A DNA stretch of 36,948 nucleotides from a virus (IMGVR_UViG_2778261353_000005); one strand, 5' to 3'; shown: positions 27,657 through 35,847, numbered from the stretch's first letter. A program made the numbers and translations. The notes: a model not told the origin generated them from the letters alone.

Positions 27657-27968
27657 TTACTCAGGAAATAACGCCCGGATATTCCCAGCCATCTGGCTGG
27701 TTATCTTAGCCACTGGTGCAGACTGTGCTTCAAACTTTTTTGAGCTGATTTGTGTCACAGGTAACATCTCATCATCAGCCCATGCGGCCAGTCGGTAAGC
27801 CTCTGCCGGATTCGTCTTCAGAAGTGCCAGCCCGGCCAGAAAAGCCACGCGTTGGCCGCTTTTGCGGGCTTCTGGTGTAAGGCTGTCCAGCCAGGCGCAT
27901 GCTTCTCCTTCGTTCTTGACGGCAGCTGGCTTCAGATAGAAACTTATCCGTCTGGTTGGTGTTGTCAT
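27657..27968 (-). CDS. parR: ParR-like centromere-binding protein
   Basis: Start 5 nt after parM stop with AAGGAG SD; RRISFYLKP...LDSLTPE...AFLAGLAL resembles plasmid R1 ParR. Confidence 0.7.
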   Translation of the reverse strand: MTTPTRRISFYLKPAAVKNEGEACAWLDSLTPEARKSGQRVAFLAGLALLKTNPAEAYRLAAWADDEMLPVTQISSKKFEAQSAPVAKITSQMAGNIRALFPE

Positions 27969-27972
27969 TGGT

Positions 27973-28932
27973 TTACTCCTTGTCCATTGCGTACAGCCCA
28001 TTAACCAGAGCAAACTGTGGCACCCCGTCCGCGATGAAAGTCGCATTAACTCCGCAGGCTTCGCGGATAGCGGGTGCCACAATCTCCGCCCCGCCACCGA
28101 CAACCATCACCCGCCCGTAACCCGAAAAACCCGCCAGCGCGCGGATCACGCGTTGTTTCAGTGTTTCTTCCTTTTCACGAATAACCGCCATCAGGCTGTC
28201 GTAATGCGCGTCATTGTGGATGTGCTGGCGCAGCCAGGCTTCATCATGGCGATGTTCGATAATGGTATTGGCGATGTGGTGACTGGTACGCATACCGTTA
28301 GTGGCCATCACCGACAGTACGGCATCGGCCATCAGGGAAACGCCTACGTGTGGATCGCAAAACACCTGGCTGATACCTGCCAGTTGTCCCTGAACCTTTG
28401 CCACATCCAGCGTGGTTCCGCCTAAATCCACAATCAGCAGGGATTCAAACGGACTCATGTCAGCCAGTGCTTTAAAGCCAGCCGGAATGGATTCAGGCAT
28501 AACCCGTACGTTACGGATAGTGAATGCTTCGCCGTTCTGGTACTCCACCGGGCGCATGACGTTCGCTTTTTTGCGGTTGATGTTGGCCATGTCCGGCTGT
28601 GCGTTTGTGTCGAAATATTCGCTCAGTGGCAGAGTGACAACCACATCCACTTCCTGTGGTGTGATGCCTGATTTGACCAGCGCGTGATGAATGGCAATGA
28701 CATTCACATCGCTGTACTGGTATTGCGTGTCGGTCGTCTGGACAAAGCGATCGCTGACCGGATCAAAACCATAGCGCACGCCATCAAGCATGTAGTTCGC
28801 GGGCTGCGTGCCACCGAACGGCGCAGACCATTCCGACTTGAAGCTGTTCGGGCTGATGGCGTTGCGGCGTTCGCCGTTCTCAGTCCATGCCAGCTTGATG
28901 TTGGTGGAGCCGTCATCGATACAAATTTTCAT
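27973..28932 (-). CDS. parM: ParM/StbA-like actin-family partition ATPase
   Basis: 319 aa; IDDGSTNIKLAW, ISPNSFK, YSDVNVIAIHHAL, NRKKAN, VMPESIPAG, LLIVDLGGTTLDV, GVSL, GFSGY, VMVVGGGAE, LVNGLY blocks as in R1 ParM. Confidence 0.85.
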   Translation of the reverse strand: MKICIDDGSTNIKLAWTENGERRNAISPNSFKSEWSAPFGGTQPANYMLDGVRYGFDPVSDRFVQTTDTQYQYSDVNVIAIHHALVKSGITPQEVDVVVTLPLSEYFDTNAQPDMANINRKKANVMRPVEYQNGEAFTIRNVRVMPESIPAGFKALADMSPFESLLIVDLGGTTLDVAKVQGQLAGISQVFCDPHVGVSLMADAVLSVMATNGMRTSHHIANTIIEHRHDEAWLRQHIHNDAHYDSLMAVIREKEETLKQRVIRALAGFSGYGRVMVVGGGAEIVAPAIREACGVNATFIADGVPQFALVNGLYAMDKE

Positions 28933-28963
28933 GTCGCTTTTCCTTATGTTGATTAATTAATCG

Positions 28964-29072
28964 CTTACGGGATTCTGAAATCCCGTTTTTGCCTGTTTTA
29001 TGCGCGCTTCATATATCGCGGCGCGTTTTTTGCTCATTTACGGGATTTGTGAATCCCGTTTCTGTCTGTTTT
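28964..29072. repeat. Two 36-bp direct repeats, each with a 20-bp palindrome (acgggatt..aatcccgt), upstream of parM; parC-like centromere/operator candidate
   Basis: Copies at about 28964..28999 and 29037..29072; second copy overlaps the last codons of gene A. Confidence 0.45.
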
Positions 29073-31831
29073 TTGTTTCCACTGGTCAGGCCACCCCGCA
29101 GCAGGTCTGCTTTGCGGCGGGCGTGTTCAGTGGTTTCACTGATTCTCTGTGCGTGCTCTGCGTCGCGGATGGCGCGCAGCATGTCAGAAAGCACGGTAAC
29201 GGGTGTTTTCATGGTGTTCTGGTCCTGCTGAAGTGTGGATGCCAGGCGTGCGGCGGCTTCGGGGTCTGATGCCCCCAGCTGTTCCAGATAGCTGGCGACC
29301 GGGTTATGGCGGATCTCCGTGCTGCTTACGCCGTGGTTACGGCTCAGGCGCTGCCAGAGCTGCGTGATCCGGCTGTCCGGTCGGGTATCCGGTTTGCGTA
29401 CAATTTCAAATCCCTGCGGTGCAATGATGCTGCCGTCGACGTACAGACTGCCGCCCCGTAACAGGTGCTGCATCTGCTGTTCACCGATAGGCAGGCCGAG
29501 AGATTCAGCAGACTCCCGCCATTCTTTAGCGAGTAACTCGTGGTTATCAGGCAAAGGCCGTGGCTGTTTGCGGCTCTGTGTCCAGTTCTGCATTTCATCA
29601 CTGCTGTTTTTTGCCTGTTTGTCACGCAGCGAACGCATCAGCGCCCGGCGTTCGTGCCGTTTCAGTGAGCGCATCCATTCATTCACGTCAACGCCGTCAG
29701 GAAGCTGCGGCCACGGTGCTGGCCGTTCTTCCAGCTGTTCTGTCCCGTTGTTGTCCGTTTCCTGTACACGGGGACAGTTATTGCCACGAGTCCAAGGGGC
29801 GGCAGGGCCGCCCTGAAGGTCAAAACCATTTTCGCGGGCGCTGTCTTCCGCTTCCGGTTTACGTCTTACCAGCTTCCAGTTATCCGGATGTGTGCACACA
29901 CGGGAAGACTCCCCGATGAGCGGTGACCAGATCCCGTAAATCTGTACGCTCTGTTCGCCGTAATCGTTCAGCTCATCTGCGAGGTCGTAGGCGGTGCGAA
30001 TCAGGTAGTCTTTGCGTGGAACAAGTACGCCGCCCTGTTTTTCAATGTAGGAGGCAAAACACCCGGCATCAGCGGCAGCGAGCACTGCATCCATTGCGTC
30101 ATCCTTCAGTCGTTGCGGGCCTTCCGGGTTGCGTGCCATCTGGCTGGCAAGGCGGCGCAGTTCACGCCACACCTGACGGGAGGGGATGCCAAAGAACTGG
30201 AACTGGCGGACCCGGTGAAGGCGCGCCCAGCCGATGGCGCGCTCCACGCTCTCGGCCATTGATTTTCCGGTTTCGTGGTCAACGCGTGGCTTGCCCGTTT
30301 TCGGGTCGATACCATCCACGGCGCGGCTGTCCAGGTTCTTTCCGATGTAGGTGGCGATGTAGCTGGTTGGCGTGCCTTTTGAGCCGTCGACGTACTCCGC
30401 CTTAAAACGCGGAGTTATGTCATCGCCCAGCTCGTGGCGGTCTTCCTGAATGGCAATATCGCAGACGTGGGACACGATGGTTTCAATCTCGTCCGGATGT
30501 GCAAAGACCATCATATGCCAGTGCACAGTGCCGTCATGGTGAGGCTCCACCGTGCGGATGCCATACCAGCGAAGACCGTCGCGGTTCAGTTTTTTGCGGA
30601 CCGCCGCAAAAAACGTGTTAACCAGGTAATCGCTGGAGTCGCGCATGGTGGCCCCGTTCCATTTGGGATTCGGATGACCGTTCTCTGTTGTGGCGTGGTA
30701 TTTTGACGGGCAGGTGACAGTCAGAAACACCGCTCTGTCGCCACGGGCTTCGGCCAGAAGTTCCAGTCCCTTCATGGTGGCCATCATTTCTGCCTTACGG
30801 TGAACCGGGTTACTTACTCCCGCGTAATACACCGTCTCGAGATCAATCGTGAACCCGTCTTCATTTTCCAGCATGAAACTTTTCAGGAAATCGCGTGTTT
30901 TCTCGCGCTGTGCGCGAAACTCGCTTAACGCGTCCTGGCTCAGATAGGGTGATGTTTTTCTGGAAACCAGACAGGCGGCGCGGAGTTGTTCTTCTCTCCA
31001 CTCGCAACGTAACAGCCACAGTTTGCGTTTCCACCATTCCGCACAGGTCAGGCGAAGGATTGCGCCCGGCAGCAGCTCCGTGTCCGGTTCGTTCCTCCGG
31101 TCTTTGTCTGTTGTCAGTGCGTCATAATGTGGAGGCATGGCGTGCAGGTGTAACGCCATGCGGGCCAGCATCTGATACGCCTTCAGCGTTACATCCATGG
31201 TCAGTTCGCCATCAGTAGCGCCAAAGCCATCGCAGAGTTTTTCGAAGGTGCTGCTGAACATCGCCGCCGTCATGGTGGCCAGCGTCTGTATCTGGTGTTT
31301 GTTGAGCTGCGGCAGGTAAAGCAAATCGTTCAGGCGTTCGCGTCCGGCAAGGGAGCGATAACCCGGTGTCAGCCAGCGGTGATCGGTGCGGTCCAGACGT
31401 TCGAATATTTTGCGCAGGGTTCCGCGCGCGTAGCGTTCCGCCTGCCAGCTCTTTTTGCCTTTCTGACGATCGGCTTCCTGCTTCTTGCGCAGGAAGGAGA
31501 GGTGGCGAATAAGCGGATCGCGCAGATAGGACGGCAGCAGGCGCAGCGAGGCCATGGCTTCATCCACCGCGCCGCGTGCCTGTTTTCTGGCGTCTCCTGC
31601 CAGTGTGATGGTTTTGTCCTGTTTTTCCTGTGCGTCCAGGCTTTTATTAATCAGGTTGCCCAGCGGCGTGGCGGAGAACGCCGCATCAGCCATTTCCTGG
31701 AGGCGCTCGTTCTCTACCCGGTAGGCATCCAGCCAGGAGGAAAGCGCGGATTCAGGAGCGGAGATCCCCGTTCCTTCACGCCCCACTGCGTGGCGCGGTT
31801 GTTGCCAGTCCCTGATGTACTCTGCCGTCAT
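29009..31831 (-). CDS. A: Replication initiation endonuclease A (rolling-circle HUH nickase); true start may be internal
   Basis: 940-aa ORF; FLTVTCPSKYH and RTVEPHHDGTVHWHMMVF as in P2 gpA; longer than P2 A, mainly at the C-terminus. Confidence 0.85.
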   Translation of the reverse strand: MTAEYIRDWQQPRHAVGREGTGISAPESALSSWLDAYRVENERLQEMADAAFSATPLGNLINKSLDAQEKQDKTITLAGDARKQARGAVDEAMASLRLLPSYLRDPLIRHLSFLRKKQEADRQKGKKSWQAERYARGTLRKIFERLDRTDHRWLTPGYRSLAGRERLNDLLYLPQLNKHQIQTLATMTAAMFSSTFEKLCDGFGATDGELTMDVTLKAYQMLARMALHLHAMPPHYDALTTDKDRRNEPDTELLPGAILRLTCAEWWKRKLWLLRCEWREEQLRAACLVSRKTSPYLSQDALSEFRAQREKTRDFLKSFMLENEDGFTIDLETVYYAGVSNPVHRKAEMMATMKGLELLAEARGDRAVFLTVTCPSKYHATTENGHPNPKWNGATMRDSSDYLVNTFFAAVRKKLNRDGLRWYGIRTVEPHHDGTVHWHMMVFAHPDEIETIVSHVCDIAIQEDRHELGDDITPRFKAEYVDGSKGTPTSYIATYIGKNLDSRAVDGIDPKTGKPRVDHETGKSMAESVERAIGWARLHRVRQFQFFGIPSRQVWRELRRLASQMARNPEGPQRLKDDAMDAVLAAADAGCFASYIEKQGGVLVPRKDYLIRTAYDLADELNDYGEQSVQIYGIWSPLIGESSRVCTHPDNWKLVRRKPEAEDSARENGFDLQGGPAAPWTRGNNCPRVQETDNNGTEQLEERPAPWPQLPDGVDVNEWMRSLKRHERRALMRSLRDKQAKNSSDEMQNWTQSRKQPRPLPDNHELLAKEWRESAESLGLPIGEQQMQHLLRGGSLYVDGSIIAPQGFEIVRKPDTRPDSRITQLWQRLSRNHGVSSTEIRHNPVASYLEQLGASDPEAAARLASTLQQDQNTMKTPVTVLSDMLRAIRDAEHAQRISETTEHARRKADLLRGGLTSGNKKQTETGFTNPVNEQKTRRDI

Positions 31832-31837
31832 AGTGAT

Positions 31838-32203
31838 TTACTTCGTCATGCCATTCAGGGTGTCGCGGCAGACTGTAGCCAGCCGCTGAATTTCCAGCAC
31901 GGTGTCTTCTGTGTCGGCATGGCGATGTGTGATGCTGATGCTGTCGGCAATCACATCGACGATTGCAGAGGATGGGCGCTGGTAAATGCCAATAACGGAC
32001 GGGGTGCCACCTTCAATGCGGTAAAGCCTGTAATTTCCCTCGTGGCTGTCAATCATGTAGCGACCATCAATAACAATCTTTCCGTCAGCGAGCTGCGGTA
32101 CAGGCAGGGATTTCAGGTACATGTCATAACGATCACGCACGCGAGCGGCAAGATCACGCTCTGTGTTGAGCAGGTATTCAAGAAAGTCGTTGGCGAGAAT
32201 CAT
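31838..32203 (-). CDS. Hypothetical early-operon protein (121 aa) upstream of A
   Basis: Protein-like composition, tight spacing to A. Confidence 0.55.
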   Translation of the reverse strand: MILANDFLEYLLNTERDLAARVRDRYDMYLKSLPVPQLADGKIVIDGRYMIDSHEGNYRLYRIEGGTPSVIGIYQRPSSAIVDVIADSISITHRHADTEDTVLEIQRLATVCRDTLNGMTK

Positions 32204-32275
32204 TGCGGCAATCCTCTTGTTACAGATGTGCGAAGGCCTCCCGCCGCAAGGTGCAGGAAAGGCCCGGAACAGGAA

Positions 32276-32506
32276 TTAATGGAGTTTGTTTTGCTGCTGG
32301 ATGAGCTGTTGAAGCTCGTGCAGATCATCCGCCAGATAGCTGAAAACAGAGGCGGAATAAATGTTTGATAGTGCGTGGCTGCGCTCATGCAACATATTGA
32401 TGTGCATGATTTGCGCGACGCGTGATGCGCGGGAAAGTCTGCGGTTGATTTCAGTCTGGATGTGACGACGCTCCGCGATAGCGCGGTGTGGTTTGCGGTT
32501 TGCCAT
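32276..32506 (-). CDS. Hypothetical small basic early protein (76 aa)
   Basis: ORF-track ORF with plausible helical composition. Confidence 0.45.
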   Translation of the reverse strand: MANRKPHRAIAERRHIQTEINRRLSRASRVAQIMHINMLHERSHALSNIYSASVFSYLADDLHELQQLIQQQNKLH

Positions 32507-32685
32507 GGTGTGGCCCCTTGTGTAGTAAGTTGTGAAAACTCACCATCCAGAGCTGCGAAACTGTGGGTGGCGAGACGTACGAGGTTCGCAGTACCGGCTA
32601 CACAAGAACCCGGCCCGACCGAAGTCGGCCCCGTACGCCCCGCCATAATTCTGACGCGAAAAAAACGTGGCAATACAGTACGCAC

Positions 32686-32706
32686 AAAAAAACCGCTGGC
32701 GCGGTT
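32686..32706 (-). terminator. Possible intrinsic terminator/attenuator inside the early-operon noncoding island
   Basis: Minus strand aaccgc-gcca-gcggtt hairpin followed by TTTTTTT. Confidence 0.35.
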
Positions 32707-32828
32707 GTGCGCTTGTGTAGTCAGCAGGCTGCGAAACCCGGCACCCGTTTTGTGAGGTGCAGCGGAAATGTAACCTGACTGATTGCGGCATGGCAAGCGG
32801 TTTTTTTGTGTGTGCATGTTCTGGTTTC

Positions 32829-33128
32829 TTAGTGGTTCAGAAAAAAATCAAAAACCTTGTCAATGCGTTGCAGCAGCTCTTGCTGTATTGCTTTCGGCGT
32901 TTCCGGTTCGCCTGGCGCCTCCAACGTCGCGCAGAAATCCTCGATTTCATGACGGAGCGTCAGGCGAATGGCGAGAGGTGTGGTTCTGGCGTGCTCCAGC
33001 TCATCCAGCAGCGCCAGCACAGCAGACGGCGAGAGCATTGCGCGAAACGCCAGTAATTTTTGAGGCGTTGCCATTCGTTGCAGGTCAGTCGCCAGTTCGC
33101 GTAATTCCTGGTGGTTGATGACGCTCAT
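32829..33128 (-). CDS. Hypothetical early protein (99 aa)
   Basis: ORF-track ORF, start overlaps upstream gene stop. Confidence 0.5.
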   Translation of the reverse strand: MSVINHQELRELATDLQRMATPQKLLAFRAMLSPSAVLALLDELEHARTTPLAIRLTLRHEIEDFCATLEAPGEPETPKAIQQELLQRIDKVFDFFLNH

Positions 33129-35533: not shown

Positions 35534-35847
35534 CTTTGTCAAGCATGGGTGAAAAATTTCGCCTGATTCGTGAAGCAGAAGGTATGACCCGCCAGGAGTT
35601 TGCGGATTGTGTTGGGCTGCCTTATGGGACGGTAACTAACTATGAGGTGAGGGGGAAGCAAGTAACAGAGGGTGCCTTACTTAAGGTTACGAAACACCCT
35701 AAATTTAAGAAGTATGCTTATTGGTTATCAACAGATGAAACGATGCCGGAGGTCGGGCAAATTTCTCCGGCTCTCTCTCTTGATGGTTCCTGCAATTCGG
35801 AGGGAGATCGCGTTTCAACCGAAACAATCCAAAAATTATCCCGCTGA
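35527..35847 (+). CDS. C: Immunity repressor C (P2 C-like)
   Basis: Start at MASLSSMGEKF (GGAGG 12 nt upstream); LSRQQ/TRQEF and GLPYGT HTH region aligns with P2 C. Confidence 0.75.
   Translation: MASLSSMGEKFRLIREAEGMTRQEFADCVGLPYGTVTNYEVRGKQVTEGALLKVTKHPKFKKYAYWLSTDETMPEVGQISPALSLDGSCNSEGDRVSTETIQKLSR

Follow-up and report, generated by a model that had tools for sequence, protein, structure and literature searches.

Two RNA families in an island of the early operon

The window analysed here is the whole of IMGVR_UViG_2778261353_000005, a viral stretch of 36,948 nucleotides (nt), and the element in question is an island at positions 32507–32828 that we read as a putative RNA-based immunity module. 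The island is bounded by the stop codon (32829) of an upstream open reading frame (ORF) of 99 amino acids (aa; 33128..32829, minus strand) and by the ATG (32506) of a 76-aa gene, the same limits that an earlier sequence-only reading had given it, and the genes around it all lie on the minus strand. The prophage is a Xuanwuvirus (P88-like, Peduoviridae, P2 family) with E. coli as host. The 37-kb Peduoviridae phage Xuanwuvirus P884B11, whose gene content includes int, C and cox, shows 99.6% identity to a 931-bp query around the island, and this query was matched in 1279 of 5426 complete E. coli genomes. All 85 related loci that we collected carry the island (85/85), in 46 distinct sequences of 86–100% identity.

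An Rfam scan of the whole window, with the curated gathering scores as cut-offs, returned exactly two matches above gathering, both on the minus strand and both inside the island, in line with the earlier suggestion that it might encode a small RNA. The first is an IsrK / P4 seqA-like RNA (32686..32760; RF01394) that scores 64.1 bits against a gathering score of 50 and covers model positions 1–77 of 77. It starts with a 5′ hairpin (32760..32741), carries the motif a1 (UUCGCAG, 32735..32729) in the loop of its second hairpin and the motif b1 (CUACACAAG, 32720..32712) after it, and closes with a terminator hairpin (32706..32691), found by a terminator scan, and a U7 tract. This 3′ end, which is invariant in the 46 variants, is the hairpin plus T7 element (AACCGCGCCAGCGGTT+TTTTT, 32706..32685) that had already been pointed out from the sequence. 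A sigma-70-like promoter-like site (32767..32796, minus strand) with nine of 12 consensus matches precedes the RNA; it consists of a -35 box TTGCCA (32796..32791), an 18-nt spacer and a -10 box TACATT (32772..32767) and stops 7 nt short of the IsrK 5′ end. Neither hexamer changes among the 46 variants, even in those with a different upstream gene.

The second match is a C4 / P4 CI-like antisense RNA (32563..32650, minus strand; RF01695) with 83.2 bits against a gathering score of 45 (E = 4e-15), covering model positions 1–87 of 87. A 17-bp outer stem encloses two hairpins, and an ACC-like 3′ tail follows the closing stem. Hairpin 1 is CCGAC-UUCG-GUCGG (32628..32615), which had been recognised beforehand as a UUCG hairpin on the transcribed strand. 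The loop of hairpin 2 (32614..32593) carries the motif b′ (CUUGUGUAG, 32606..32598), and the motif a′ (CUGCGAA, 32591..32585) lies single-stranded 3′ of this hairpin. When the C4 segment is folded alone, its minimum-free-energy structure is the family consensus (-47.7 kcal/mol, z = -4.46). Among the variants the outer stem is 99.9% paired with three pairs changed on both sides, and hairpin 1 has two such pairs. The c4-a1b1 Rfam model stayed below threshold in the window (20.9 vs 46.7). A further promoter-like match over the 5′ flank of C4 (TTGCCA-17-AATTAT, 32673..32645, minus strand) was not adopted, because its -35 box reads TCGCCA (T to C) in most of the other specificity classes described below and because transcription from it would truncate the C4 stem; judged from these sequences, it is probably not a conserved promoter.

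The position of the island had suggested a tR1-like attenuator upstream of the replication genes. In its plain form this explanation holds that the hairpin and U7 end a fraction of early transcripts in cis and that the other hairpins and the repeats are incidental, and a canonical intrinsic terminator does lie on the transcribed strand between the early genes and the replication gene gpA. We consider it highly improbable, since two above-threshold RNA families cover the island, since the terminator closes an IsrK-like unit that has its own conserved promoter-like site, and since a terminator cannot explain the compensatory covariation at three sites reported in the next section. What stands of the earlier suggestion is a structured RNA regulator with an intrinsic terminator, in the early operon and upstream of a replication gene; its likeness to lambda tR1 does not. 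P2-family phages are not known to use an N/nut system, and no N/nut search was made on the window.

Covarying pairing sites and their classes

Downstream of C4 lies a seqC-like target (32514..32559, minus strand) composed of a2 (UUCGCAG, 32559..32553), a spacer hairpin and b2 (CUACACAAG, 32525..32517). The a2 motif is the complement of a′ and b2 that of b′, with two G:U pairs extending the latter helix to 32515. In the window b′ is thus exactly complementary to both b1 and b2 over 9 nt, and a′ to both a1 and a2 over 7 nt. The b2 motif overlaps the Shine-Dalgarno (SD) sequence AAGGGG (32519..32514), which lies 7 nt before the AUG (32506) of the 76-aa gene.

These motifs account for the repeats noticed in the sequence-only reading. 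Three copies of CTTGTGTAG (plus strand, 32517 and 32712; minus strand, 32598) are all in the island and none occurs elsewhere in the window, and two copies of GCTGCGAAAC are present at 32552 and 32728. For the 36.9-kb window the number expected by chance is 0.16 for CTTGTGTAG and 0.23 for GCTGCGAAAC; three copies of CTTGTGTAG were reached in 0/100 shuffles, and two copies of GCTGCGAAAC in 2/100. An additional inverted partial copy, CTGCGAA(C) (32591..32584, minus strand), had been overlooked. The repeats are the antisense and target recognition elements, as the covariation of all three sites described below shows.

Variation among the 46 distinct islands (alignment A1, used for all covariation counts) is coordinated and concentrated in exactly three places. 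In the b1:b′ helix 100% of the cells are paired, with six of nine pairs changed on both sides; the corresponding figures are 96% and five of 11 for b′:b2, and 92% and four of eight for both a1:a′ and a′:a2. The whole tested structure is 97–98% paired, a value that falls to 37–45% when the partners are slid by 1–3 columns. Such coordinated change at three sites is, at the sequence level, strong evidence for RNA–RNA pairing, and this signature refutes both chance and a simple terminator. The covariance and structure prediction that the earlier reading had proposed as a check gave, in sum, two Rfam families, the consensus C4 fold and three-site covariation in relatives.

The 46 islands fall into 10 b classes and five a classes, which occur in 12 combinations. 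Over the nine positions of the b′/b2 cores, cognate partners pair at 8.7 positions on average and non-cognate partners at 6.2. Distant relatives, whose homologue of the 76-aa protein is 35–60% identical, have exactly the same spacing of elements, down to the nucleotide (from the ATG, C4 hairpin 2 at -107, b2 at -19, a2 at -53, b1 near -208 and a1 near -223) and add further a and b classes. When the classes were compared with the alleles of the C repressor of the same prophages, the two were found to reassort independently: one a/b class occurs with C alleles from ≥95% down to 30–50% identity, and one C allele occurs with two classes. Such reassortment is expected of a second immunity determinant that acts independently, as in P1. 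The b′ loop of the window (CCGGNNNCTTGTGTAGCCGG) was also sought in other contexts in IMG/VR, where we found only the same cassette, including that of the distant relatives L088 and L093, plus one chance match inside a coding region (L101).

One related locus, L076 (IMGVR_UViG_2582580934_000004), has C4 hairpin 2 in duplicate, through a 17-nt insertion after window position 32610. The added loop (AUUCUUUGCUCU) equals the b′ of the class of another locus, L051, and the b1 and b2 of L076 remain in the class of the window. From its sequence L076 possibly carries a C4 of dual specificity. The double b′ hairpin had no contiguous match in the 5426 complete E. coli genomes, so the locus is perhaps a rare recombinant, or the insertion an error of assembly.

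The classes were further compared with those of 79 P4-like loci (within L210–L289). None of the 10 b′ or five a′ classes (0 of 10 and 0 of 5) equals any class in the P4-like set, and cross-immunity with P4-like satellites was rejected as unsupported: no class is common to both and the register of b2 to the SD differs, so that no predicted cross-repression was found. Some classes are mirror images of each other. Class 2 of the P88-like phages has a′ GUGGAAA and target UUUCCAC, and a common P4-like class has a′ UUUCCAC and target GUGGAAA; a further pair is GUUGAGAA/UUCUCAAC against UUCUCAC/GUGAGAA. In such pairs the P88-like and P4-like antisense RNAs would be complementary to each other over 6–7 nt. 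Within the P4-like set, L259 carries seqA a1/b1 of one class and CI and seqC of another, and is an apparent recombinant with a mismatched upstream target.

These comparisons bear on the idea that the cassette is a weapon or shield between helpers and satellites or between prophages, with C4 or the 76-aa protein acting mainly on P4-like satellites or on the C repressor of other P2-like prophages. The idea is favoured by the homology between the cassette and the immunity/epsilon region of P4; moreover, there are genomes with both P88-like and P4-like elements, the P88-like a′ class GUGGAAA is the exact complement of the P4-like a′ class UUUCCAC, and protection against satellites by prophage IsrK–C4 has been speculated upon (PMC3632133). 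We nevertheless find this role unlikely: there is no class common to the P88-like phages and the 79 P4-like loci, the b2/SD register differs, and the targets in cis are always present and cognate, so that self-regulation is sufficient to explain the conservation.

The enclosing frame and the genes downstream

The sequence-only reading had seen no credible ORF in the island, a view contradicted by a 205-aa open frame (32200..32817, minus strand) of the Eta/Ash family that is kept open among relatives, matches Pfam PF10554 (Phage_ASH) and is coupled at its start and stop. The frame encloses the promoter-like site, IsrK, C4, a2/b2 and the whole 76-aa gene, relative to which it runs in frame +1. 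Its PF10554 score is 26.5 bits (gathering 26), compared with 82.2 for P4 eta and 39 for a distant relative. The ATG (32817) follows the stop of the upstream ORF by 11 nt and precedes the -35 box (32796), so that the promoter-like site is inside the frame but downstream of its start codon, and the stop overlaps the ATG of a downstream 121-aa ORF as ATGA (32203..32200). Despite different upstream genes, relatives conserve an ATG of this frame some 21 nt before the -35 box; in distant loci this ATG shares an ATGA with the upstream stop and is preceded by an AAGGGAG SD. The overlap between the stop of the frame and the ATG of the next gene (ATGA) is found almost everywhere.

Among 56 relatives the frame is open from C4 through the 76-aa gene in all (56/56); in 52 no stop interrupts its full extent, which runs from a point before the promoter to about +300/+310. 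The overlap with the 76-aa gene was examined in 41 distinct homologues, none of which has a stop in the 205-aa frame (0 stops, 41/41), while the third frame has 1–5 stops; synonymous shuffles were stop-free in 0.4–27% of cases, typically about 5%. Variable sites in the overlap are distributed over codon positions 1, 2 and 3 of the 76-aa gene as 19, 16 and 33, and amino-acid changes amount to 8.9 in the 205-aa frame, 5.2 in the frame of the 76-aa gene and 7.6 in the third frame. The bias to position 3, together with the larger number of changes in the 205-aa frame, indicates that the 76-aa product is the conserved protein and that the long frame is kept translatable, though not as a protein. 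Judged from these patterns, the 205-aa frame is under selection and its protein sequence is not conserved. The earlier remark that this ORF has a non-protein composition was therefore a fair impression as far as its amino-acid sequence goes, and missed that the frame itself is selected.

The same counts speak against a purely protein-coding explanation, according to which the 205-aa ORF is an Ash-family transcriptional regulator and the repeats are features of its coding sequence. It draws on the Phage_ASH match, on matches of the 205-aa ORF to several PHROG families of "transcriptional regulator", on the conserved openness of the frame and on the name "transcriptional regulator" in NC_049391. 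We think it very doubtful, as the changes are compensatory at the RNA level and not conservative at the protein level, the changes in the 205-aa frame exceed those in both other frames, the family similarity is limited to the part that encodes the conserved RNAs, and the frame is broken or shortened in four relatives.

The closing stem of C4 has at its 5′ edge an AUG of this frame (32646..32644, minus strand; within AAUUAUGG) that is invariant in the 46 variants. It has counterparts in P4 (CAAUGG, in frame with eta) and in the Rfam consensus (AuGG), and lies at about +115 from the predicted IsrK start, near the positions of the start codons of Gifsy-1 orf45, +107 and +120 (PMC4825925). It may be a nested kil/orf45-like start on read-through transcripts.

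The first gene that the module would control is the 76-aa gene (32276..32506, minus strand), a P4 epsilon-like "derepression" or anti-repressor gene. Its product matches Pfam PF25738 (Derepression) with 32.5 bits against a gathering score of 27 and shares 29% identity with P4 epsilon across 66 aa (E = 4e-9); when more distant epsilon homologues were sought by protein searches, only close relatives came up. P4 epsilon (E) is an anti-repressor that binds the C repressor of P2 (PMC2995052). The prophage encodes a P2 C-type immunity repressor of its own (35545..35847, plus strand; phmmer matches to the P2 C structures 2xcj and 2l49, E = 1.2e-15), and since this is the type of repressor bound by P4 epsilon, it is a candidate target of the 76-aa protein.

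Public annotations treat the region (window 32200..32817, minus strand; L001, 5358–5618) unevenly. In RefSeq NC_049391 (HYP18_gp51) the 205-aa frame is called and the epsilon-like gene is omitted; genomes processed by the Prokaryotic Genome Annotation Pipeline (PGAP) have the 76-aa gene, under the name "derepression protein", and leave the island blank; PV468777 has "similar to ash family protein". IsrK and C4 are annotated in none of NC_049391, the PGAP genomes and PV468777.

Further downstream on the minus strand follow two genes for which polarity or translational coupling is likely, the 121-aa ORF (32203..31838) and a replication endonuclease gene, gpA (31831..29009, 940 aa; Pfam Phage_GPA, 431 bits). 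The 121-aa ORF is ATGA-coupled to the Eta-like frame, and 6 nt separate it from gpA. Neither Pfam nor NCBIfam gave a match for it, P4 orf151 is not similar to it, and its one hit is PHROG 3237 (function unknown). By the parallel with P4 and P1 we infer that the module would also control the 121-aa ORF and gpA. The 72-nt spacer between the epsilon-like gene and the 121-aa ORF contains a GC-rich hairpin (GGGCCUUUCCUGCACCUUGCGGCGGGAGGCCU; 32265..32234, minus strand) with no U-tract, and the fold energy of this spacer is not unusual (z = -0.8). Just downstream of gpA, near-identical relatives are annotated with a ParM-type plasmid segregation protein and a partition/stability protein, a hint of plasmid-like maintenance; carried over from the homologue, their coordinates (about 27658..28933, minus strand) are approximate for the window.

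Proposed mechanism and comparison with known systems

The identities of the parts, the covarying pairing potential, the target over the ribosome-binding site, the internal promoter downstream of the ATG of the conduit frame, as we call the 205-aa frame for its presumed role, and the coupling junctions are observed. On this basis we put the probability at roughly 0.8 that the island is the RNA core of a P4-type (P1 immI-type) immunity module in a P2-family prophage. In P4, CI pairs with seqA and seqC, which leads to termination of transcription before the replication genes (PMC4825925). IsrK and C4 have been equated with P4 seqA and CI (PMC3632133), and translation of eta from upstream transcripts prevents the CI-dependent termination (PMC10111431).

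In the lysogen, C would shut the early promoter and the internal promoter would fire. Transcripts from it cannot translate the Eta-like frame, because the ATG of that frame is upstream of the promoter, and left untranslated they would fold. Most would end at the IsrK terminator, and the read-through RNA would be processed, in the manner of RNase P, to a stable C4. This RNA would pair with a2/b2, and with a1/b1 on nascent RNA, and block translation of the epsilon-like gene, with premature and probably Rho-dependent termination as a result. The anti-repressor, the 121-aa protein and gpA would so be kept off, both in cis and, where an incoming phage shares the a/b class, in trans. During lytic growth the upstream early promoter would transcribe the region, and ribosomes coupled from the upstream gene would read the Eta-like frame across terminator, C4 and target sites; this would prevent folding, pairing and entry of Rho, and the ribosomes would pass to the 121-aa and gpA genes by way of the ATGA junction. 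IsrK, with its a1/b1, could act as a decoy of C4 that tunes the release of the anti-repressor, as in the activation mode of Gifsy-1, and this could make the cassette a trigger of induction.

A rival reading is a Gifsy-1-like induction switch with a mainly positive role, in which short IsrK made under particular stresses pairs in trans with the C4-containing read-through RNA and opens its translation, whereupon the epsilon-like anti-repressor inactivates C and the prophage is induced. Gifsy-1 IsrK activates translation of the downstream orf45-anrP at least 100-fold and promotes induction (PMC4825925). The window has the IsrK–C4 order of Gifsy-1 with an anti-repressor-family gene directly downstream, the a1/b1:a′/b′ pairing is kept as strictly as that of a2/b2, the prophage encodes a repressor of the P2 C type, to which P4 epsilon is known to bind, and P88 was recovered following treatment with mitomycin C. 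We regard this switch as possible but clearly less probable than the immunity module, given that the homologous RNA is a repressor in P4 and P1 and that many a/b classes, reassorting independently of C, are more easily explained by a trans-acting immunity specificity. The two readings overlap, and the switch may be a second face of the same device.

Several points weigh against the immunity module. We infer promoter activity, the IsrK and C4 transcripts, RNase P processing, Rho dependence and trans-immunity by analogy, and C as the target of the epsilon-like protein stands at candidate level. The Phage_ASH score of the 205-aa frame is barely over its threshold (26.5 vs 26), the SD before the Eta-like ATG is weak in the lineage of the window itself, and the frame is disrupted in four of the 56 relatives, in three upstream of C4 and in one by an early end at +232. 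Seven genome pairs with co-resident elements, compared for heteroimmunity, gave a mixed picture: three shared a class, on contigs that are possibly duplicates, so that strict exclusion finds no support there. Compared with P4, the replication gene is gpA (Phage_GPA) in place of the alpha primase, and the epsilon-like gene is nested out of frame in the Eta-like frame, whereas epsilon follows eta in P4. The window also has no kil-like ORF between target and epsilon; b2 consequently covers the SD of the epsilon-like gene itself.

The C/Cox switch of P2-like phages is the textbook example of control by proteins alone, and here one P2-like lineage would carry a P4/P1-type RNA immunity device before an anti-repressor homologue and a replication gene. 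A wider proposal, which we advance tentatively, is that P2-family helper-type phages have a second, RNA-based layer of immunity with a two-key (a × b) code independent of C, and that small RNAs, a nested anti-repressor gene and a conduit frame kept open only for the passage of ribosomes overlap in three layers, such that translation of the conduit would decide between RNA folding (immunity) and expression of the replication gene. If this is true, the P4 immunity/epsilon cassette and that of the window would be of recent common origin, and RNA cross-talk between helper and satellite would be possible, for example through the mirror a′ pair GUGGAAA (P88-like) and UUUCCAC (P4-like). The presence of such a device in a P2-like lineage is relevant to prophage induction, to superinfection exclusion and to the evolutionary tie between P4 satellites and their helpers. 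Roughly one in four complete E. coli genomes has a prophage of this type, but public annotation of the region is wrong or missing. The 10 × 5 natural specificity classes would offer a ready set of orthogonal antisense/target pairs.

The system is not of a new kind, because its RNA families, the pairing logic and the P4 and Gifsy-1 mechanisms are already known. Our literature search, of incomplete coverage and hence weak as evidence, found no paper on the cassette in P2-like phages. In the literature searched, three aspects appear undescribed: a complete P4-like immunity/epsilon cassette that precedes gpA in a helper-type phage of the P2 family, an epsilon nested out of frame in an Eta-like conduit frame, and the size of the natural specificity repertoire.

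The immI operon of P1 and P7 is laid out as a1 b1 – c4 – a2 b2 – icd – ant. The window resembles it in a C4-family RNA with a′ and b′, in complementary sites both upstream and downstream, in a b2 placed over the ribosome-binding site of the first downstream ORF, and in an anti-repressor as the regulated output. Citron and Schuster in 1990 and Biere et al. in 1992 reportedly found that a few a′/b′ bases set the specificity and underlie the heteroimmunity of P1 and P7. The window differs in its epsilon-family output and in that a1/b1 are packaged in an IsrK-type unit with its own terminator; neither the Ant nor the Icd family was found among its downstream ORFs (the 76-aa product is a Derepression protein, and the 121-aa ORF has no such match).

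The isrK-orf45-anrP region of Salmonella Gifsy-1 has an IsrK with its own promoter and a leaky terminator, then a processed C4-like RNA and an anti-repressor that is reached through translational coupling (ATGA), and the predicted parts of the window resemble it in this. In Gifsy-1 the processed RNA that follows IsrK, STnc1160, is about 80 nt long, and IsrK activates the downstream anti-repressor in trans (PMC4825925). The documented effect of IsrK there is thus activation, and the output feeds the antiterminator AntQ. The IsrK and C4 cassettes of Stx phages, mEp460 and ST64B have about 70% DNA identity to the island; such cassettes, that of Gifsy-1 included, differ in that they belong to lambdoid phages and precede anti-repressors of the Ant/Rha type.

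The closest parallel in the order of parts is P4 itself (NC_001609), in which isrK (60.8 bits) and C4 (74.9 bits) are matched inside the old "cI protein" coding sequence, directly upstream of epsilon, orf151, orf106 and alpha. Its plan runs from the promoter through seqA with a1/b1 and CI with b′/a′ to seqC, where a spacer hairpin separates a2 from a b2 that lies over an SD. In the window every RNA part keeps the order and orientation that it has in P4, and both Rfam models match both elements. The short hairpin spacer between a2 and b2 and the placing of b2 over an SD are likewise common to the two, as is the position of the module inside a Phage_ASH (Eta) frame with an epsilon-family gene and then a replication gene behind it. 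The promoter-like site of the window is the positional counterpart of PLE, where P4 has TTGCCT...TATAGT, and both elements have relatives with combinatorial diversity of a/b classes, those of P4 being the 79 P4-like loci. The spacer between IsrK and C4 measures 35 nt here and about 107 nt in P4. The host of the module is a full-size P2-family phage with C/Cox, whereas P4 is a satellite; the Phage_GPA gene and the identity to P884B11 together imply that the module would work like the P4 region in a prophage that is not a P4-like satellite.

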